Part shown: positions 16,384 through 28,802 of the stretch, in pieces
Numbering within the stretch: the stretch's first letter is position 1
Layout of the letters: each line of letters starts with the position of its first letter
From: Minisyncoccota bacterium
GTDB lineage: Bacteria; Patescibacteriota; Minisyncoccia; Phycocordibacterales; UBA5272
Length of the DNA stretch: 38,578 bases
Direction: 5' to 3'
NCBI GenBank assembly: GCA_022843645.1
Contig: JALHNF010000001.1
Coordinates: 1-38,578 of the forward strand
Translations under genes and position numbers: made by a program
Notes under the pieces: model-generated
The model's database searches: none
The model's input: only the letters and a program-made list of their open reading frames with translations
What the model was told of the DNA's origin: nothing

Positions 16384-16947
16384 CTATTTCTTAATCGCGC
16401 CCAACTCTTTTTTAAGCTCAGAAAGCAATATTTCGATTTTCGCAATTCTTTCTTGCTGCTCACTGTCTATCTTTTGTTCACGGGCGATTTCTGAGTCTGT
16501 ACTTTCTTCAAGCTCTGCCACGTCTTCTTGAATTTCCTCTACGTCCGCGCTAATTTCCTGAACATTCTTTTCAATGCCTTCTACGTCAACGCTAATCTCT
16601 TCAATGTCTTCCGAAATTTCCTCGACATCTTTTTGCATTTCTTCTACGTCTTCTCCAATATCTTCAACCTCCTCTTGAATATCTTCAAGCTCTCCTTCTA
16701 CAGCTTCAAGTTGGGCCGTATTTCTGTTGATAGACATTTGAATAAAAAGCGCTAAGTAAATAGCCTCAAGTGAAACCGCTGTTGTCAGAATGAGAAGTGC
16801 TTTTTCAAGTGGAAAACCGAAAAGAGGAAGCGAAAGTACTGCTGCAAAAACTATTGTATGCAAAATTAGAGAAAGCGGTGAGCCAATCCAAAGAGTTGCC
16901 CGTTCGGCAAAAGAATCTATCTTTCTCGACATCTTTTTCTCTTTCAT
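16384..16947 (-). CDS. DUF1003-like membrane protein with acidic heptad-repeat tail
   Basis: The N-terminal half (FAERATLWIGSPLSLILHTIVFAAV...AVSLEAIYLALFIQMSINR) resembles the DUF1003 two-TM core. The C-terminal half is E/D-rich heptads. Confidence 0.65.
   Translation of the reverse strand: MKEKKMSRKIDSFAERATLWIGSPLSLILHTIVFAAVLSLPLFGFPLEKALLILTTAVSLEAIYLALFIQMSINRNTAQLEAVEGELEDIQEEVEDIGEDVEEMQKDVEEISEDIEEISVDVEGIEKNVQEISADVEEIQEDVAELEESTDSEIAREQKIDSEQQERIAKIEILLSELKKELGAIKK
16498..16707 (-). repeat. about 10 tandem 21-bp (7-aa) coding repeats, consensus E-E-I-x-x-D-V
   Basis: EDIQEEV EDIGEDV EEMQKDV EEISEDI EEISVDV EGIEKNV QEISADV EEIQEDV flanked by degenerate units. A recurring ctacgtc...aat(a/t)tc periodicity is visible in the DNA. 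Confidence 0.8.
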
Positions 16948-17024: not shown

Positions 17025-17330
17025 TCACGTGTTCCACCAGCTTGTTGAAGAGAGTGTCGTGGGTTTTGTGCTTTCTTGCGGCGACTTTCGAGCACCTTCC
17101 TGGCGCTCTGCTGCAAGTTTGTCGGCGGCTGCTTTGGCCGGAAGCTGCTCAACTGCACACTGACGTTCGCGGACAATAACGAGGACATCAACACCTTTCG
17201 CCTTAGCTGCTTTCTTGAGCTCAGTGCGTCGGGCCGCTTGATTTTCGCGCTTGCGGAAACTGGCCCGTGCCTGGCCTCGGTGCGGCCTACGACGCCGAGC
17301 AGGATCGTAGGCGTTTTGGAATTGATTCAT
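17025..17330 (-). CDS. small, highly basic, low-complexity orphan protein (high G+C)
   Basis: The ATG is preceded by AAGGAGG (17335-17341) with a 4-nt gap. The gene has its own promoter and terminator. 101 aa rich in R/K/A (PARRRRPHRGQARASFRKRENQAARRTELKKAAKAKG). Sampled lines are 62-67% G+C. Confidence 0.6.
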   Translation of the reverse strand: MNQFQNAYDPARRRRPHRGQARASFRKRENQAARRTELKKAAKAKGVDVLVIVRERQCAVEQLPAKAAADKLAAERQEGARKSPQESTKPTTLSSTSWWNT

Positions 17331-17350
17331 TGAACCTCCTTTTGGTTTTA

Positions 17351-17413: not shown

Positions 17414-17433
17414 CTTTGAGTGTTGCATATCTT

Positions 17434-17442
17434 TGATACACT
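17434..17442 (+). promoter_or_regulatory. extended -10 (TGaTACACT) 7 nt upstream of ATG 17450 (leaderless-type)
   Basis: TGA TACACT at 17434-17442, then attttat, then ATG. Confidence 0.4.
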
Positions 17443-17449
17443 ATTTTAT

Positions 17450-20400
17450 ATGGCTCGTGCGCAAAAAACACAAAACATAAAGAAAATATCTCCTCTTAAA
17501 AAAAGTGATGTAAAAAAAGCACCGATGATCACCACCTATGATCCAAAGAAGATAGAGTCAGCGATTCAGAAAAAGTGGGAGAAAGAAAAACCATTTAAAG
17601 CGTTTTCAAGTGCAAAGACAAAAAAGAAGCCATTTTATGCACTTTCGATGATTCCATACCCCTCTGGCACAGGGCTCCACATTGGCCATCCACGAAGCTA
17701 CACCGCAACCGACATTGTCGCTCGACAAAAGCGTATGGAGGGCTTCAATGTTTTAAATCCCATGGGATATGACGCGTTTGGGCTTCCGGCAGAGCAGTTT
17801 GCGATACAAAACAAAGTTCATCCTAAGAAGGCCGTTGCTATGAACGTAGCAACATTCGAACGCCAACTCAAAAAGCTTGGTTTATCTTTCGATTGGGATA
17901 GAAAAATAAATACCACTGACCCTGAGTACTACAAATGGACACAGTGGATATTTTTGAAGCTATATAACTCCTACTACGACACCAAAAAACAAAAAGCCAC
18001 TTCAATAGAATCTCTCATTTCAATATTTGAAAAAAGGGGCAATAAAGATGTTTCTGCATACGCAAGTGGGGAAGTACAGGAATTTTCAAAACAAGAATGG
18101 CTTCAAATGACTCCTCTGCAGAAACAAGAAACATTAATGCGCTACCGTCTTGCGTATGAAGGAATTGCAGAGGTGAACTGGTGCGAAGAGCTTGGCACCG
18201 TGCTCGCAAACGATGAAGTGGTTGATGGAAAAGACGGTCCTGTATCTGAGCGCGGCGGCTATCCAGTTACAAAAAAGAATATTCGCCAATGGTTTTTGCG
18301 TATTACCGCATATGCTGACAGACTTTTGTCTGGATTAAATGAAATAGAGTGGCCAGAACACATTAAAGAAATAGAGAAAAATTGGATTGGGAGAAGTGAA
18401 GGCGCAGAGATATCGTTTAAGCTTGACATCCCAGGCCAGTCTGAAAACAAGCATTCCGTAAAAGTTTTTACTACACGGGCAGATACACTATTTGGAGTGA
18501 CATTCATTGCCATATCTCCTGAGCTTGCACAAAGTTGGATTGATGCAGGATGGAGTCCTGATGTAAGTGTTGCTAGATATACCAAACAAACAATACAAGA
18601 ACATCAAAAAGCCACCTTTGACGCCACACAAAAGAAAACAGGTGTATATACGGGCGTCTACGCAAAGCATCCAGGCACAGGAGAAAATATTCCGGTATGG
18701 GTCACAAATTATGTATTGCCAGGATATGGCACGGGAGCCATTATGGGTGTACCTGCACACGATGAGCGAGATTTCGAATTCGCAAAAGAATACGGTCTGC
18801 CAATAAAAAATGTCATTGACCCTGTATATATACGGCCAGACGTGATTGCGCGCACTGACTTTACTAAAAAACACAAAGTGGTGAGCTTAGTCGAGGCTCC
18901 AGATGGGAAAATACTAACAATGAATTGGGGTCCAAAGCTCGGAGGCAGGCTTCTTCTTGGAGGAACTATTGAAAAAGGCGAAACACCTGAGCAAACCGCG
19001 CTGCGAGAGCTCAAAGAAGAAACAGGGTATGTACATGGAGACATTGTCTCAGTGAGTGAAGAAACATTTGACTACAAATACTTTGCAACATCGAAGAACG
19101 TGGCATATCAGGCGCTCACCCGCTTTGTCCACATCAAACTTCGTGATCTTGAAAAAGAAGAGGCTTCGCTTGAAGAAAATGAGAAGGGTTTATTTAAAGT
19201 GGAATGGGTAAGTAAGGAGCATGCGAAAAAAGAAATTGTCGAGGTTCTTCATTTGTACGCTCTTGATCTATATGCATTTCAAACTCCATTTTGTGGCGAG
19301 GGTGTTATTGCCCGCTCAGGTGAGTTCTCGGGGCTTTCATCATTAGATGCTCGGAAAGTAATTGCAGAAGCCGTGGGTGGCACACTCGTCACTCGGTACA
19401 AAATGCGAGACGCTATTTTTGCTCGACAAAGATACTGGGGAGAACCTGTGCCACTCTACAAGGACGCGCAAGCCATCATTCATGAAGTGAAAAAGTTGCC
19501 ACTTACACTTCCAAATACCGCCTCGTATGAACCAACTGGTACAGGCGAGGGTCCGCTTGCAAATATCCCTGCTTGGAAAAAAGGTGGGTATGAAACAAAT
19601 ACAATGCCAGGATGGGCAGGCTCAAGCTGGTACTATCTGCGGTACATGGATGCGGCGAATAAGAAAAAGTTCGCAGACGAAAAAGAAATTCGTTATTGGA
19701 AACATGTCGACATATATCTCGGGGGAGGAGAACATGCCACAGGGCACCTTCTCTATGCAAGGTTTTGGCATAAGTTTCTCAAAGATTACGGGCTTGTGCA
19801 TACTGAAGAGCCGTTCAAAAAATTTGTTGCTCACGGCATGATCCTTGCAAGTGATGGTAGAAAAATGAGTAAGCGGTGGGGAAACGTAGTCAATCCTGAT
19901 GACGTGATAAATATCTACGGCGCAGACACAGCACGTCTCTATATTGCCTTCATGGGTCCATACACAGAAGCTATACCGTGGTCCGAAGAGAGTATCGTTG
20001 GGTCTCGCCGTTTCATTGAACGCCTTTATAAAAAAGGACTCAGAGTGAATGCAGAAAATACTACAAAGACGGATCTAAGCGCCCTCAAGGCGATACACAA
20101 ACTTATTCAAAAAGTTTCACTTGATATTGCATCATGTAGCTTTAACACTGCTGTTGCCAAAGCCATGGAAACAATGAATATCCTCGAGTCTGCATCGATA
20201 AGCAAAAAAGACTTCTCAGTTTTTCTACAAGTACTGTACCCTTTTGTGCCTCATGTGACCGAGTACCTGTGGTCACAGTGGAACAAAGAGCCTATTCACA
20301 CATCAAAATGGCCTCGTGCGGACAAAAAATACACGAGAGAAGAGAATGTCACTATTGGCGTTCAAATAAACGGAAAGTTGCGAGGCAATATCACTATTCC

Positions 20401-20536
20401 GTTTAATTCGAGTGAAGATAGTGCCAAAAAACACGCCCTAGAAGAAGAAAATGTGCGTAAATATATCGAGGGAAAGACTATTTTGAAGGTTATTTACGTA
20501 CAAAATAGGATTGTAAACATCGTTATAAAGCCTTAA
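17450..20536 (+). CDS. leuS: leucine--tRNA ligase with an embedded Nudix-hydrolase-like domain
   Basis: HIGH (GLHIGHPRSY) and KMSKS-type (RKMSKRWGN) motifs. CP1 editing motifs TTRADTLFGV and GTGAIMGVPAHDERDFEFA, plus RQRYWGEPVP. The Bacteroidetes-like insertion LYNSYYDTKK...RYRLAY is present. Start uncertain: ATG 17450 (promoter geometry), ATG 17525 (canonical MITTYDPKKIE N-terminus) or the track GTG 17420. Confidence 0.9.
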   Translation: MARAQKTQNIKKISPLKKSDVKKAPMITTYDPKKIESAIQKKWEKEKPFKAFSSAKTKKKPFYALSMIPYPSGTGLHIGHPRSYTATDIVARQKRMEGFNVLNPMGYDAFGLPAEQFAIQNKVHPKKAVAMNVATFERQLKKLGLSFDWDRKINTTDPEYYKWTQWIFLKLYNSYYDTKKQKATSIESLISIFEKRGNKDVSAYASGEVQEFSKQEWLQMTPLQKQETLMRYRLAYEGIAEVNWCEELGTVLANDEVVDGKDGPVSERGGYPVTKKNIRQWFLRITAYADRLLSGLNEIEWPEHIKEIEKNWIGRSEGAEISFKLDIPGQSENKHSVKVFTTRADTLFGVTFIAISPELAQSWIDAGWSPDVSVARYTKQTIQEHQKATFDATQKKTGVYTGVYAKHPGTGENIPVWVTNYVLPGYGTGAIMGVPAHDERDFEFAKEYGLPIKNVIDPVYIRPDVIARTDFTKKHKVVSLVEAPDGKILTMNWGPKLGGRLLLGGTIEKGETPEQTALRELKEETGYVHGDIVSVSEETFDYKYFATSKNVAYQALTRFVHIKLRDLEKEEASLEENEKGLFKVEWVSKEHAKKEIVEVLHLYALDLYAFQTPFCGEGVIARSGEFSGLSSLDARKVIAEAVGGTLVTRYKMRDAIFARQRYWGEPVPLYKDAQAIIHEVKKLPLTLPNTASYEPTGTGEGPLANIPAWKKGGYETNTMPGWAGSSWYYLRYMDAANKKKFADEKEIRYWKHVDIYLGGGEHATGHLLYARFWHKFLKDYGLVHTEEPFKKFVAHGMILASDGRKMSKRWGNVVNPDDVINIYGADTARLYIAFMGPYTEAIPWSEESIVGSRRFIERLYKKGLRVNAENTTKTDLSALKAIHKLIQKVSLDIASCSFNTAVAKAMETMNILESASISKKDFSVFLQVLYPFVPHVTEYLWSQWNKEPIHTSKWPRADKKYTREENVTIGVQINGKLRGNITIPFNSSEDSAKKHALEEENVRKYIEGKTILKVIYVQNRIVNIVIKP

Positions 20537-20577: not shown

Positions 20578-20603
20578 ACTTATTAATTGTCCTATTGAAG
20601 TTT

Positions 20604-21635
20604 ATGTCTACACTATCATTTAAACCAAAACAAGTTACCAAAAAGCTCCTCTCGCCACTATCTGGCCGAGCAAAAGATGTGGTTACTAATCGTTTTGGTA
20701 TTACAGAAGGCGCAGAACGAAAAACACTTGAAGCAATCGGAAAACAATACGGTATTACTCGAGAACGAGTTCGACAAATTGAGCAATTTGCTCTTTCAAC
20801 GATCAAAAAATCTGACGCGTACAATGAGTTTAAACATATCTCAGACGAGCTCAAAGGCATCATTCAAAAACTGGGTGGCATTGTTGCAGAACATGATTTC
20901 CTTGCGCATGTTTCAAAAGATCCAGAAGCCCAAAACCATATTCATTTCTACCTCACACTTGGGGACGATTTCAAAAAACATAAAGAGGACGATCATTTTC
21001 ATCATCGATGGACTATTGATCAAAAACTTACTGATGTTGTCCACGATGCACTAAGTAGTCTTTACAAAAGCCTCGACGACGAGGAGCTTGTAAGTGAAAC
21101 TCACATTGTCAACACATTCACTGAGAAACTAAAAGACTTAGCAGATGAATACCGAAACGAAGAGATTGTTCGCCGCTATCTTAAGATCTCAAAATCAATC
21201 GGTCGAAACGCACTTGGTGAATGGGGAAAATCTTCATCTCCACACATTCATACACGAGGCATCAAAGACTACGCATACCTTGTTATGCGAAAGTTCGGTT
21301 CTCCAATGCACTTCAAAGAAGTGGCAAGAGACATATCAAAATACTTCGGTAAAAAAGCTCACGTTGCAACAACGCACAATGAACTTATTAAAGACGCTCG
21401 TTTTGTGCTTGTTGGACGAGGTGTGTACGGACTTCGAGAGTGGGGACATGTTGGTGGTGTAGTACGAGACGTCATTGCAGACGTATTACGAGAAGCAAAA
21501 AAACCTCTCAGTAAAGAAGATGTTGTGGATGCGGTTCTTAAAAAGCGTGTGGTCAAAGCAAATACAGTTATCGTGAACCTCCAGAACACAGAATTCTTCA
21601 AGAAAAACAAAGACGGTTTATACGAGCTCGTATAA
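20604..21635 (+). CDS. DNA-binding protein with sigma-70 region 4 HTH (N-terminal) and HARE-HTH-like domain (C-terminal)
   Basis: LSGRAKDVVTNRFGI...RKTLEAIGKQYGITRERVRQIEQFALSTIKK matches sigma70 region 4. MHFKEVARDIS...LVGRGVYGLREWG resembles HARE-HTH. No sigma regions 2 or 3 are present. Confidence 0.7.
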   Translation: MSTLSFKPKQVTKKLLSPLSGRAKDVVTNRFGITEGAERKTLEAIGKQYGITRERVRQIEQFALSTIKKSDAYNEFKHISDELKGIIQKLGGIVAEHDFLAHVSKDPEAQNHIHFYLTLGDDFKKHKEDDHFHHRWTIDQKLTDVVHDALSSLYKSLDDEELVSETHIVNTFTEKLKDLADEYRNEEIVRRYLKISKSIGRNALGEWGKSSSPHIHTRGIKDYAYLVMRKFGSPMHFKEVARDISKYFGKKAHVATTHNELIKDARFVLVGRGVYGLREWGHVGGVVRDVIADVLREAKKPLSKEDVVDAVLKKRVVKANTVIVNLQNTEFFKKNKDGLYELV

Positions 21636-21658: not shown

Positions 21659-21664
21659 AGTGTG

Positions 21665-22990
21665 ATGAGTTACTTCGGTGACATTATCACGCTATTATTT
21701 TTTGTTGCCATTACATCACTTCTTGGTATTGTGTGGTGGAGACAGTGGGTGCGACATGTGCAAGCGCAGTTTTTAAACTCTATTAAGTGGATAGTGCTTG
21801 AAATACGTCTTCCGCGAGATGTTTTTAAATCACCACTTGCAATGGAAATGGTATTAAATTCAATTCACCAGGGAGGTGGTACAGGTAACAATTATGCCAA
21901 ATTTTGGGATGGAAAAGTTCGTAATTGGTTTTCTTTAGAAATCGCCTCAATTGAGGGGGACGTGCGTTTTTATATCCGCACCAACAGTAAGTTCAAAAAT
22001 GCAATTGAAGCAGCATTGTATTCTCAATATCCTGATGCAGAGGTAACAGAAGTAGAAGACTATACAAACTACACGAGATTTGACGATGCAATTCATGATG
22101 TCTGGGGTGCAGAGTTTAGTCTCAAAGGACAAGACTTTTTGCCAATACGAACATATGTTGACTTTGCCTTAAATAAAGATCCGAAAGAAGAGTATAAAGT
22201 TGACCCTATTGCGCCTATCATCGAGTGGATGGGGAGTATTAAAAAAGGTGAGCAGGTTTGGTTTCAGATAATCACACGAGCTGTTGACGGAAAATTTGAA
22301 AACTGGAAAAAAGAAGGCGAAGAGGCGTTGGAAAAAATATACTACGGAGTAAAATTTACTGATGACTTAAAAGCAAAGAAGGCTGAAGCTGAAGCGTCGG
22401 GCAAAAAACTTGAGAAAAGAAAACCCGGAGATCTAAGCGAGATAGAGAAAATCCAAGCTGAGGCAATTAGCCGTAATCTAAGTAAACTTGGTTTTGAATG
22501 CGGAATTCGTGTAGTTTATATTGCCAAAAAGGAAAACTTTGATGGCAAGAATATAGATGCGCTTACGGGTTGTTTACGGCAGTTCAACTCACCACTTCTA
22601 AATTCTTTCGCTCCAATTGGGGATACAATGCCTTCTTTTGACTATCCGTGGCAAGACAGAACGGGGAAAAAGAAGCTAGGGCGCAAAGAGGGAATTGTAG
22701 ATAGCTTCATCAAGCGCAAACTATTCTATAAGGCTCATAGCAACGAAGACTGGTACAATGGTATTCCTGAAAACATATTCCATGACATAAAAGAGGCCTT
22801 CGTGATACGTTTTTTTGCAGTCGACCCAGATCATGTTAATTACAAAGGATCAAAAGACGAGAATCGTTTCATCTTGAATGCTGAAGAGCTCGCAACGATC
22901 TATCACTTCCCAGGACAAGTAGCCGCATCTCCATCACTCAAACGTATTACCTCTACAAAAGCAGAGCCACCAGTAAATTTGCCACTATAA
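21665..22990 (+). CDS. hypothetical N-terminally anchored membrane protein
   Basis: TM segment IITLLFFVAITSLLGIVWW followed by a 400-aa soluble region. No catalytic motif recognised. Confidence 0.6.
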   Translation: MSYFGDIITLLFFVAITSLLGIVWWRQWVRHVQAQFLNSIKWIVLEIRLPRDVFKSPLAMEMVLNSIHQGGGTGNNYAKFWDGKVRNWFSLEIASIEGDVRFYIRTNSKFKNAIEAALYSQYPDAEVTEVEDYTNYTRFDDAIHDVWGAEFSLKGQDFLPIRTYVDFALNKDPKEEYKVDPIAPIIEWMGSIKKGEQVWFQIITRAVDGKFENWKKEGEEALEKIYYGVKFTDDLKAKKAEAEASGKKLEKRKPGDLSEIEKIQAEAISRNLSKLGFECGIRVVYIAKKENFDGKNIDALTGCLRQFNSPLLNSFAPIGDTMPSFDYPWQDRTGKKKLGRKEGIVDSFIKRKLFYKAHSNEDWYNGIPENIFHDIKEAFVIRFFAVDPDHVNYKGSKDENRFILNAEELATIYHFPGQVAASPSLKRITSTKAEPPVNLPL

Positions 22991-26867: not shown

Positions 26868-28802
26868 ATGAAAGTAAAAGAGCTTAGAGCGACATTCTTG
26901 AGTTTTATGGAAGAAAAAGGGCATGTCATCGTCCCCTCATCTCCGCTTGTGCCCGAAAATGACCCTACAACGCTCTTTACGGGCTCTGGCATGCAACCGA
27001 TGCTGCCGTATCTACTCGGACAGCCACACCCAAGCGGAAAACGTGTGGCTGACTCTCAAAAAGCGTTTCGGAGTCAAGACATAGAAGAAGTTGGCGATAA
27101 CCGTCATACGACTTTTTTTGAAATGATTGGAAATTGGTCTTTTGGAGATTATTTCAAAGAAGAGCAAATTACATGGATGTGGGACTTTCTAGTGAGCAAG
27201 TTAAAGCTCGATCCTGAAAATTTTTATCTCACATGTTTTATTGGTAATGATTCTCTTGGTGTACCTCGTGATACATATTCGGCAGAACTTTGGCAAGCTT
27301 TTTTTAAAAAGAAAGGAATAGATGTTGGAATCGGCGAAAATCCCGAGAAAGATGGTATTCGAACAATCAATGGAGTAAGAGATCATATATTTTACTATTC
27401 CGAAAAAAAGAATTGGTGGAGCCGCACAGGAGCACCTGCAAATATGCCCATTGGAGAGCCGGGTGGTCCGGATACTGAGATGTTTTATGACTTTCACCCA
27501 GAACTAGGACGAAGCTGTATTCCAAATACTCCGTTTAGTGGTGAATTTTGCCATGTAAACTGTGATTGTGGACGATTTGTGGAAATAGGTAATAACGTAT
27601 TCATGCAGTACAAAAAAACTGCACAAGGCTTTGAAGAGTTGCCACAAATGAACGTTGACCACGGCTCAGGACTTGAACGTATTTGTGCTGCTGTAAATGA
27701 TGATGGTGATGTCTTTAATATTGATATCTTTGAAAACGCAAAGAAAACCATTGAAAATCTTTCTGGAAAAGCGTATACGGGCGAAGCGCAGTATGCATTT
27801 CGAGTAATTCTCGATCATATTCGCGCTGCAACATTTTTAATAAGCGATGGGGTGCTTCCGGGAAACAAAGACCAGAGCTATTTTGTACGGCGCCTCATTC
27901 GTCGTGCGGTACGGTTTGCTCGCAACCTCGACATTCACACAAACTTTTGTGCCGAAGTTGCAGATTCATTTATTCAAGTCTACAAAGACGAGTACACAAA
28001 CCTTGAAACTAACAAAGACGTTATTCTTGGCGAAATAACAAAAGAGGAGGAGAAGTTTAGAAAAACACTTGAGAATGGAATGAAGGAGTTTGAAAAAGCT
28101 ATCATAGAAATTCATAAATCAGTTAACGGAGAAACAAAAGAGATAATTAGACATTTGTCGGGCCGCATCGCTTTTGATCTACTTCAGTCATATGGATTCC
28201 CAATTGAGCTTACAGAAGAACTTGCAAAAGAGCGAAACATCATTGTGGACCGGGAGGAATTTGAAAAGCATAAAAAAGAACATTCTGATCAATCTCGCAC
28301 AGCATCAGCTGGAAAATTCAAAGGTGGCTTAGGTGGCGATGGGGAAATGGAAGTCAAGTTCCACACAGCCACACACTTGCTCCATCAAGCACTCCGCGAG
28401 GTACTTGGCGAGCACGTATTGCAAAAAGGCTCAAACATCACTCCTGAACGCCTCCGCTTTGACTTTTCTCATGATGCAAAAATGACCGACGAAGAAAAAA
28501 AGAAAGTAGAAAATCTTATTAATTCAAAAATTGCTGCAGATTTACCAGTAACACGTGAAGAAGTCTCATTTGAAGAAGCAAAAGCACGTGGTGCTATTGG
28601 ACTTTTTGAAGACAAATACAGTGACGTGGTGAGCATTTACCGAATAGGTGAGGGCACAAAACGTGGTGATAGCAATCTGTACTCAATCGAGTTTTGTGGC
28701 GGTCCACATGTAGAACGTCTTGGGGTGCTCGGAACGTTTAAAATTCAGAAAGAAGAAGCTGTAAGCGCTGGTGTGCGACGAATTAAGGCTGTGTTGATAT
28801 AA
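26868..28802 (+). CDS. alaS: alanine--tRNA ligase, short form lacking the C-Ala domain
   Basis: DPTTLFTGSGMQP, HTTFFEMIGNWSFGDYFK, the editing-domain motifs HTATHLLHQAL and CGGPHV, ending ...GVRRIKAVLI. It is 644 aa. Confidence 0.9.
   Translation: MKVKELRATFLSFMEEKGHVIVPSSPLVPENDPTTLFTGSGMQPMLPYLLGQPHPSGKRVADSQKAFRSQDIEEVGDNRHTTFFEMIGNWSFGDYFKEEQITWMWDFLVSKLKLDPENFYLTCFIGNDSLGVPRDTYSAELWQAFFKKKGIDVGIGENPEKDGIRTINGVRDHIFYYSEKKNWWSRTGAPANMPIGEPGGPDTEMFYDFHPELGRSCIPNTPFSGEFCHVNCDCGRFVEIGNNVFMQYKKTAQGFEELPQMNVDHGSGLERICAAVNDDGDVFNIDIFENAKKTIENLSGKAYTGEAQYAFRVILDHIRAATFLISDGVLPGNKDQSYFVRRLIRRAVRFARNLDIHTNFCAEVADSFIQVYKDEYTNLETNKDVILGEITKEEEKFRKTLENGMKEFEKAIIEIHKSVNGETKEIIRHLSGRIAFDLLQSYGFPIELTEELAKERNIIVDREEFEKHKKEHSDQSRTASAGKFKGGLGGDGEMEVKFHTATHLLHQALREVLGEHVLQKGSNITPERLRFDFSHDAKMTDEEKKKVENLINSKIAADLPVTREEVSFEEAKARGAIGLFEDKYSDVVSIYRIGEGTKRGDSNLYSIEFCGGPHVERLGVLGTFKIQKEEAVSAGVRRIKAVLI

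Follow-up and report, generated by a model that had tools for sequence, protein, structure and literature searches.

A complete Nudix hydrolase domain nested in the CP1 editing domain of leucyl-tRNA synthetase is exchanged as a cassette between leuS alleles of Patescibacteria

We analysed a 38,578-nucleotide stretch of the genome of a Minisyncoccota bacterium (GenBank assembly GCA_022843645.1, contig JALHNF010000001.1, positions 1 to 38,578; hereafter the window), in which the leuS gene codes for a bacterial-type leucyl-tRNA synthetase (LeuRS) whose CP1 editing domain holds an insert. The insert amounts to an entire Nudix pyrophosphohydrolase domain, its catalytic motif intact, and sits within a variable loop on the CP1 surface. 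Comparison with related proteins shows that leuS alleles exchange this module, along with about 15-40 CP1 residues on its flanks, or lack it, even where their LeuRS are otherwise 75-96% identical. The combination of a Nudix domain nested in CP1, a wide occurrence in Patescibacteria and exchange as a recombining cassette is apparently undescribed; its component families, the Nudix superfamily and bacterial LeuRS, are already known. The explanation that we favour, with a probability of about 0.55, is that of an autonomous and active Nudix enzyme carried on a permissive CP1 loop and acting on soluble nucleotides, most likely diadenosine tetraphosphate (Ap4A) and its dinucleoside tetraphosphate relatives (Np4N) or non-canonical nucleoside triphosphates (NTPs), with LeuRS as its scaffold.

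A complete Nudix domain within an intact leucyl-tRNA synthetase

The features of leuS and of its insert are the following (window positions; aa, residues of the LeuRS product):

17450..20536, forward strand: leuS coding sequence, 1028 aa from the likely start ATG at 17450, bacterial-type leucyl-tRNA synthetase
17678..17689, forward strand: HIGH signature, aa 87-90; H87, G89 and H90 invariant in 91 homologues
18377..18820, forward strand: portion of the CP1 editing domain N-terminal to the insert, aa 320-467, PF13603 positions 1-146 of 185
18470..18487, forward strand: Thr-rich editing-site motif TTRADT, aa 351-356, aligning to Thermus TTRPDT
18755..18763, forward strand: AHD editing-site motif with the conserved Asp, aa 446-448; H447 and D448 invariant in the 91 homologues
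18821..19282, forward strand: Nudix hydrolase module, 'type C' cassette, aa 468-621, about 154 aa, boundaries +/- 3 aa
18962..19030, forward strand: Nudix box GTIEKGETPEQTALRELKEETGY, aa 515-537, strict GX5EX7REUXEEXGU pattern
19283..19405, forward strand: remainder of CP1 on the C-terminal side, leading back into the catalytic core, aa 622-662, Thermus 380 onward; G628 100% conserved
19862..19873, forward strand: KMSK(S) signature, aa 815-818; K818 invariant, K815, M816 and S817 at least 90% conserved

An uninterrupted open reading frame extends over 17420..20536 of the forward strand (1038 aa when counted from the GTG at 17420), and the 1028-aa product is 100% identical to a database protein (P0121). 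It scores 857.3 bits against the equivalog model of bacterial LeuRS (TIGR00396, leuS_bact; cutoff 548.4), and its alignment with the Thermus thermophilus enzyme (1h3n) reaches both ends (E 1.2e-167). As in the bacterial LeuRS of T. thermophilus (1h3n) and Escherichia coli (4aq7/3zgz), the catalytic core carries HIGH and KMSKS, CP1 occupies the bacterial position with its Thr-rich and Asp motifs, and the anticodon-binding and C-terminal domains are present. The LeuRS editing domain model PF13603 is matched with 180.4 bits (E 3.2e-53), T351 and T352 of the Thr-rich motif being invariant, and R353, D355 and T356 at least 90% conserved, among the 91 homologues. Since TTRADT, the Asp of AHD, HIGH and KMSK are all conserved, the host enzyme looks fully functional. 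Its sequence supports an intact bacterial-type LeuRS, recognizable as such by the equivalog model, both class signatures and a CP1 domain with Thr-rich motif and Asp. A first-pass annotation, made from the letters alone, had placed all the motifs where we find them (HIGH at aa 87-90, KMSK at aa 815-818) and had described a functional-looking aminoacyl-tRNA synthetase (aaRS), a description with which the 857 bits of TIGR00396 and the invariance of T351, T352 and D448 agree.

The query also differs from the Thermus enzyme outside the insert. It lacks the leucine-specific domain, aa 811-816 corresponding to Thermus 580-638 with about four residues instead, and this site (window 19850-19873, aa 811-818) reads ..ASDGRKMSK.. 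in the query. The LeuRS of Mycoplasma mobile is reported to be a natural variant with a tetrapeptide in place of this domain (PMC3643597), so that the loss is compatible with membership of the LeuRS family. The query has in addition a family-conserved segment of about 58 aa (window 17966-18151, aa 183-244, against Thermus 145-148). In its ZN-1 module (window 18170-18290, aa 251-291) most of the Cys residues are missing and one Thermus Cys/His zinc ligand is retained (VNWCEELG...DGKDGPVSERGG against VNWCPKCQ...GRCWRHED in Thermus), from which we infer that zinc binding has probably been lost. At NCBI the LeuRS-Nudix proteins are entered as 'class I tRNA ligase family protein' and not leucine--tRNA ligase, though the query passes TIGR00396; the insertion seems to be the cause of this annotation gap.

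The position of the insert is well delimited. A conserved CP1 motif of 30 residues occupies aa 437-466, the PF13603 match breaks off at model position 146 of 185 (aa 472), and conserved sequence follows the insert in the blocks GEGVIARSGEFSGL (aa 626-639) and RYKMRDAIFARQRYWGEP (aa 659-676). In the Thermus alignment, query residues 467 to 627 correspond to residues 363 to 380 of the 1h3n chain, i.e. 160 aa against 17 aa, so that the Thermus enzyme has 17 residues where the query holds a 154-aa Nudix domain. The closest insert-free homologue (P0127), 76% identical elsewhere, reads ...VISDEEEKLPFTGEG... at the insertion site, which sets the limits of the insert at about aa 468-621 (nt 18821-19282), and 0-47 aa are found there in the closest insert-free relatives, whose identity is about 75%. 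The excess of about 160 residues noticed at first pass is borne out by these lengths, which also rule out an ordinary CP1 extension of characterised LeuRS.

The Pfam model NUDIX (PF00293) matches aa 490-603 of the whole protein with 50.4 bits (E 2.8e-13) and the excised segment with 54.6 bits, against a gathering cutoff of 21.1, confirming the Nudix assignment made from the motif. The box itself, which the segment KVVSLVEAPDGKILTMNW (aa 486-503) precedes, is the exact match to the Nudix pattern that had been read at nt 18962-19030. The insert is indistinguishable from the rest of leuS in composition (GC 0.431 vs 0.428; GC at third codon positions 0.377 vs 0.389), as had been suspected along with its continuous frame, and its codon-usage score falls inside the range of the gene body. 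A Pfam scan of the insert for marks of mobile elements returned NUDIX only, and a search for repeats at its borders found none; together with the native composition, these results rule out a transposon- or intein-like insertion.

That the architecture is an artefact, whether through chimeric assembly or through a frameshift that fused two genes, has a practically negligible probability, even though the source is a metagenome-type assembly. The identical 1028-aa protein is found with the same neighbours (genes for a methyltransferase, DsbA-like, YchF and DUF948-like proteins, leuS itself, then sigma70_r4/HARE-HTH, DUF8128, YceG and RNase_T) in independent assemblies (SRR28154526; SRR28154528 and two more samples). 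The module stands at the same site in hundreds of homologues, LeuRS sequence resumes on both sides of it within one fold, and the frame is continuous with native composition; an assembly chimera is ruled out on these grounds.

AlphaFold2 modelled the whole protein with a mean predicted local distance difference test score (pLDDT) of 88.1 and a predicted template modelling score (pTM) of 0.80, the blocks of the insert reaching pLDDT 84-96 with the exception of an acidic loop at aa 581-590. The domain modelled alone (pLDDT 87.6, pTM 0.83) has its strands and helices in the order expected for the alpha/beta/alpha sandwich of Nudix enzymes, the box lying on a loop-helix-loop whose helix spans model residues 62-74, and Foldseek aligned it to solved Nudix enzymes with probability 1.00 and template modelling (TM) scores of 0.6-0.79 (up to 0.70/0.79). 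Structure prediction thus agrees with the assignment, and a profile score above the gathering cutoff, a box with the metal-binding Glu and the predicted fold together place the insert in the Nudix superfamily. Among 77 insert-bearing LeuRS, G515, E530 and E534 are conserved in 77/77, E533 and G536 in 76/77, and E521 and R529 in 73/77, while the median identity to the query is 25% for the insert and 56% for the LeuRS body. Conservation of the box residues at 95-100% in an insert that is otherwise only about 25% identical is the mark of selection on catalysis, and on its sequence and model the module is predicted to be an active divalent-cation-dependent hydrolase.

The alternative is a Nudix fold without catalysis, which would sense a ligand or, in a structural or interaction role, modulate the movement of CP1. 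Nudix-fold proteins without enzyme activity do exist (PMC5389931), a box residue is lost in about 5% of the homologues, 39 of the 150 best representatives in the profile search described below have no strict box, and the query type is devoid of some non-box residues conserved in the family. A non-catalytic role is nevertheless very improbable, given that the query keeps every metal-binding and catalytic residue of the box and that the box stands out so sharply from the remaining insert in its conservation.

Distribution and exchange between leuS alleles

A search with the full-length protein returned mostly proteins of about 1000 aa with PF00293 and LeuRS domains, and those matches that bear names belong to Candidatus Paceibacterota/Pacebacteria, to the Parcubacteria/Patescibacteria group or to Liptonbacteria. 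Most of the Paceibacteria/Patescibacteria LeuRS retrieved hold a Nudix domain at the identical CP1 site. This survey of orthologues from the Candidate Phyla Radiation (CPR) goes beyond the first-pass annotation in that the architecture turns out to be common, not a single case, and in that the module behaves as a cassette. A scan of contigs for named relatives, based on peptide patterns specific to the query protein, gave two close ones, both at loci syntenic with the window: a Candidatus Paceibacterota metagenome-assembled genome (MAG) with a LeuRS 72% identical and 1022 aa long, in which the insert is present, and a Candidatus Paceibacteria MAG with a LeuRS 74% identical and 875 aa long, from which it is absent.

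With the profile of the insert, 1.84 billion representative proteins were searched, and 174 clusters were found at E<=1e-30. Among the best 150 of these 174 clusters, LeuRS context was recognized in 105 by motif and in a further 8 by Pfam (about 113, some 75%), 31 were free-standing proteins of <=250 aa, and no host protein other than LeuRS was found for the Nudix family. In every fragment examined, the Nudix domain follows PF13603 position ~142-150. As a separate observation, loci L024-L083 include many MAGs of Asgard archaea (Promethearchaeota, Hodarchaeota, Hermodarchaeota) and DPANN with a bacterial-type LeuRS about 40% identical to the query.

Identities of LeuRS body and insert are decoupled over 2926 pairs (r = 0.26), as can be seen in the following:

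P0163 / P0180: body identity 0.96, insert identity 0.28
P0145 / P0151: body identity 0.89, insert identity 0.31
P0214 / P0226: body identity 0.88, insert identity 0.19
P0196 / P0207: body identity 0.93, insert identity 0.93

When P0163 is aligned with P0180, identity is about 97-99% at aa 1-420 and ~640-1010 and collapses at ~aa 421-632, which comprises the Nudix domain and 15-40 CP1 residues on each side; the confinement of this collapse to the module and its CP1 flanks is the signature of a recombination tract. The module can therefore be said to behave as a recombining cassette, as LeuRS pairs of 88-96% identity can hold inserts of 19-31% identity and the tract in one such pair is mosaic. 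In the clade of the query, the flanks aa 446-467 and 622-645 co-vary with the type of insert, and the remaining LeuRS is equidistant among the relatives. The probable unit of exchange is accordingly wider than the domain:

18755..19354, forward strand: probable exchange unit, Nudix module with CP1 flanks aa 446-467 and 622-645

Within this LeuRS clade, in which body identity is 72-76%, the insertion site is occupied as follows:

Nudix type C: query, P0122, P0123
Nudix type E: P0125, P0126
Nudix type A: P0124
No Nudix: P0127, P0130, P0132, P0134, P0135, P0140

The types A, C and E are only 21-24% identical to one another, and the nearer relatives of each sit in LeuRS bodies that are more distant, as in P0149, whose insert is 65% identical to type E in a body 60% identical. 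The clade of type-C inserts is small, comprising those of the query, P0122, P0123 and P0157. From YchF to AlaRS, the locus of the insert-free P0127 is syntenic with the window. A profile search for Nudix remnants in the residual segments of insert-free relatives gave negative scores only, and no compensating free-standing Nudix gene was found within +/-10 kb of an insert-free leuS.

Free-standing members of the family do occur elsewhere, with insert-profile E-values of 1e-48 to 1e-23. The genes for P0241-P0257 (157-168 aa; E 1e-48 to 1e-28) are independent, lie away from leuS and have Patescibacteria-like neighbourhoods. Their products share an N-terminal lead-in and an FFAAHKxxNR motif with the majority LeuRS insert and belong to the same Nudix subfamily, whereas the type-C insert of the query is only 19-28% identical to them.

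The Nudix domain is not the sole module inserted in CP1. Some homologues have, besides it, a second insertion site at the N-terminal edge of CP1 (PF13603 position ~20, protein aa ~302-470), at which the following were found:

P0147: Ham1/ITPase family domain
P0181, P0209: ASCH domain
P0190: alpha/beta-hydrolase domain
P0191: HAD domain, under its threshold

Two or three tandem Nudix copies are present in the LeuRS P0209, P0222, P0361, P0362 and P0372. Two further proteins, P0366 and P0431, have no LeuRS part and consist of Nudix repeats only. Small hydrolase domains seem to have a hotspot in CP1, and Nudix, Ham1 and HAD are classic nucleotide 'house-cleaning' families. In a partial LeuRS of Parcubacteria GW2011_GWF2_38_8 (P0109), the endonuclease-like domains PF04480 and PF18741 stand beside the editing domain and may represent another type of insertion at or near the Nudix site.

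Such turnover invites an explanation by conflict, in which the module would be a variable detoxification or immunity cassette that guards LeuRS, tRNA-Leu or the nucleotide pool against varying nucleotide-type toxins, phage signals or damaged nucleotides of host origin, its replacement being driven by diversifying selection; the other hydrolases inserted in CP1 would be covered as well. The hypervariability and recombinational mosaicism resemble those of conflict systems, alternative hydrolase modules and tandem copies are found, and an aaRS with an extra enzyme domain has a precedent in NCBIfam (ileS_w_GNAT). We hold this explanation to be improbable. The models of defence systems gave no significant match, that of PADLOC PDC-S07 being weak and limited to the Nudix box (best E 3.5e-6), and the neighbourhood of leuS consists of ordinary housekeeping genes, none of them for toxins, immunity or phage functions; furthermore, dispensability and frequent recombination account for the turnover too. 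Membership of a known defence system was ruled out, the PADLOC similarity being weak and at the level of the box, and the PHROGs matches those of generic Nudix proteins.

Substrate class and relation of the module to its host

When a profile of 29 inserts was compared with solved structures, the best matches were Ap4A hydrolases, from Lupinus (1f3y, 6.4e-11) and Aquifex (3i7u, 4.4e-9). The top Foldseek match was an uncharacterised Nudix protein of E. faecalis (2azw), and the next best were E. coli RppH (including its Ap4A complex 7sp3), the Aquifex Ap4A hydrolase, the Thermus Ap6A hydrolase Ndx1 and the decapping effector AvrM14. RppH/NudH (4s2x, 6vck, 7sp3), aq_158 (3i7u), Ndx1 (1vc8) and the Lupinus enzyme (1f3y) share fold and Nudix box with the insert and are its best characterised matches (structure E 4e-9 to 4e-8, TM 0.58-0.78). 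They are only 16-22% identical to it, and they are free-standing, whereas the query Nudix is nested within an aaRS editing domain.

Among curated subfamilies, that of RppH was ruled out (NF001938, NF001936 and NF001935 at 20-23 bits against cutoffs of 116-259), as were the MutT 8-oxo-(d)GTP diphosphatases (TIGR00586, 28 bits against 97.9; NF008044, 27.3 against 148; box region only), the ADP-ribose pyrophosphatases (TIGR00052, 16.8 bits against 79.55), and NudE and YtkD, whose scores were far under the curated cutoffs. One residue beyond the box deserves attention:

19079..19081, forward strand: Tyr554, candidate 'X-loop' aromatic, 17 residues past the Nudix box

This spacing may be that of the X-loop Tyr, in which case the residue would be a candidate for stacking on the base of the substrate. 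Of 77 homologues, 74 have an aromatic residue there (Phe in 44, Tyr in 27, Trp in 3), and an aromatic residue alone is not specific to a subfamily. A conserved Tyr in the X-loop after the box has been proposed as the marker of ApnA hydrolases, and a Pro about 15-16 residues past the box as that of ADP-ribose pyrophosphatases (PMC5389931). There is no Pro in aa 538-556 of the query, which read VHGDIVSVSEETFDYKYFA.

(Di)nucleoside polyphosphates or NTP-type compounds are a reasoned guess at the substrates, and Ap4A is a plausible one. Aminoacyl-AMP, by contrast, is a mixed anhydride with a single phosphate and is not a nucleoside diphosphate-X compound, which from general knowledge of the superfamily makes it an unlikely Nudix substrate. 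The aaRSs are a main source of Ap4A in the cell, and its degradation is the work of Nudix enzymes, RppH and aq_158 among them (PMC10148737).

If the module is indeed an autonomous enzyme, it would act alone as a divalent-cation-dependent hydrolase of soluble nucleoside-diphosphate-X compounds, the likeliest being (di)nucleoside polyphosphates, Ap4A/Np4N for instance, or else non-canonical NTPs. A nucleotide 'house-cleaning' enzyme would thereby ride on an essential and constitutively expressed protein, with LeuRS as both its scaffold and its expression vehicle; leucylation and editing would be independent of the module, and the types of cassette may differ in substrate. House-cleaning is favoured because the family is also found free-standing, because the module is swapped or absent among near-identical LeuRS, and because other hydrolases occur in CP1. 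Between the two roles put forward at first pass, house-cleaning on an essential protein is thus the better supported, and the clearing of Ap4A stays plausible, Ap4A/Ap6A hydrolases and RppH leading in both sequence and fold by small margins.

Several observations weigh against an autonomous house-cleaning enzyme of this substrate class. In the comparison with the 29-insert profile, ADP-ribose pyrophosphatases and MutT come close behind the Ap4A hydrolases, with small margins, and the Foldseek margins between Ap4A-, ADP-ribose- and MutT-type matches are likewise small. The type-C insert alone finds its best match in NUDT5, weakly and in the box region only, and no cutoff was approached when the insert was compared with the NCBIfam equivalog models. 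The type-C clade of the query is also without residues of the main family (K..N562-R563 replaced by K..AY, H592 by F and R484 by K). Cassette-like hypervariability is atypical of housekeeping hydrolases. Finally, a family that is about 75% LeuRS-embedded, at one site and with no other host, could mean coupling to LeuRS or tRNA-Leu.

Such coupling is the foremost alternative, though rather unlikely in our estimation. The Nudix domain would clear in cis the Ap4A or Ap3A formed from Leu-AMP with ATP or ADP, or would act on bound tRNA-Leu, for instance by stripping a pyrophosphate-containing modification or cap from its 5' or 3' end. CP1 receives the 3' end of the tRNA during editing. Persistently and exclusively, the family has LeuRS as its host (~113 of the 150 best representatives, at PF13603 ~142-150, with no other host seen), and cassettes that are replaced give way to another Nudix domain. 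The nearest characterised relatives are hydrolases of Ap4A and Ap6A and RppH, the latter acting on RNA 5' ends and Np4 caps, and Ap4A is made by aaRSs (PMC10148737). Against coupling stand the close, syntenic LeuRS that work without the module and the occurrence of the same Nudix family as free-standing proteins. The presence of Ham1, HAD, ASCH and alpha/beta-hydrolase domains in CP1 suggests a permissive platform, and the constancy of the insertion site is trivially accounted for by recombination between leuS alleles. LeuRS, moreover, is not known as one of the classic strong producers of Ap4A.

A bolder proposal, which we consider quite unlikely, joins elements of both coupling and conflict: CP1 would be a dock, shuffled by recombination, for interchangeable hydrolase cassettes whose activity is tied to the synthetase or to tRNA-Leu and whose diversity is driven by conflict. 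These cassettes may comprise several types of Nudix, tandem Nudix, Ham1, HAD, ASCH and alpha/beta-hydrolase domains, and their roles may include the removal of pyrophosphate-linked modifications or caps from tRNA ends and the destruction of nucleotide-type LeuRS poisons or alarmones. If true, it would add to an aminoacyl-tRNA synthetase an accessory layer of a novel type.

Neighbouring genes, precedents and implications

Outside leuS, the window has a few features of its own. A GC-rich patch (17025-17350; 56% GC against ~40% nearby) lies just upstream of leuS and contains a minus-strand open reading frame (17025-17330) of 101 aa, rich in Arg, Ala and Lys, which is a called gene in public assemblies and for which Pfam gave no match; the corresponding spacer in the relative L004 is only ~49 nt. 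A structured RNA or T-box leader in this patch was ruled out, as Rfam gave no match. Next to it, on the minus strand, 16384-16947 codes for a 187-aa protein with an N-terminal membrane-like segment followed by acidic repeats (V/I)EE(I/M)xxD(V/I)EE; it has weak coiled-coil-type and DUF948 matches only, and adjoins leuS in relatives too. Directly downstream of leuS, on the forward strand, genes for a protein with sigma-70 region 4 and HARE-HTH (20595-21635) and for a DUF8128 protein (21662-22990) are both kept across relatives. Farther on, the alanyl-tRNA synthetase (26868-28802, forward strand) is only 644 aa long, with catalytic domain and tRNA_SAD, against 639 aa in a syntenic relative, and is apparently devoid of the C-terminal C-Ala region of typical bacterial AlaRS.

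No description of a LeuRS-Nudix architecture was found in full-text searching of papers open without subscription; within that scope the impression of novelty voiced at first pass holds, and a review of the Nudix clan nowhere mentions tRNA synthetases (PMC5389931). The architecture is nonetheless already visible in precomputed domain annotations, and LeuRS-Nudix proteins are present in hundreds of public Patescibacteria sequences. Partial precedents are known. In the isoleucyl-tRNA synthetases (IleRS) of NCBIfam NF040702 (ileS_w_GNAT), an essential class I synthetase is likewise combined with an enzyme domain that modifies small molecules, differing in that the domain is an N-acetyltransferase (GNAT) and the host IleRS. 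In NadM/NMNAT-Nudix, a HIGH-motif Rossmann enzyme that transfers adenylyl groups is fused to a Nudix domain that degrades the adenylylated dinucleotide NAD+ (PMC7824862). The logic of a synthetase joined to a hydrolase of its nucleotide product is the same, but here two domains of NAD metabolism are joined end to end, with neither nesting in an editing domain nor an aaRS involved.

It is unusual for a bacterial synthetase to hold a complete second enzyme within its proofreading domain, and the architecture would surprise aaRS specialists. Extra domains of aaRSs are well known in eukaryotes. That cassettes are swapped within an essential gene makes a striking example of modular recombination at the intragenic level, and it provides natural pairs of LeuRS with and without the module. 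The insertion also bears on the annotation of LeuRS, on alignments in which it serves as a phylogenetic marker, and on inhibitors directed at CP1. Should the substrate be Ap4A/Np4N, the architecture would constitute a physical link between a class of enzymes that produces Ap4A and its removal. The finding shows how the ultra-small, salvage-dependent genomes of the CPR can load nucleotide-sanitising or alarmone-degrading activities onto an essential protein.

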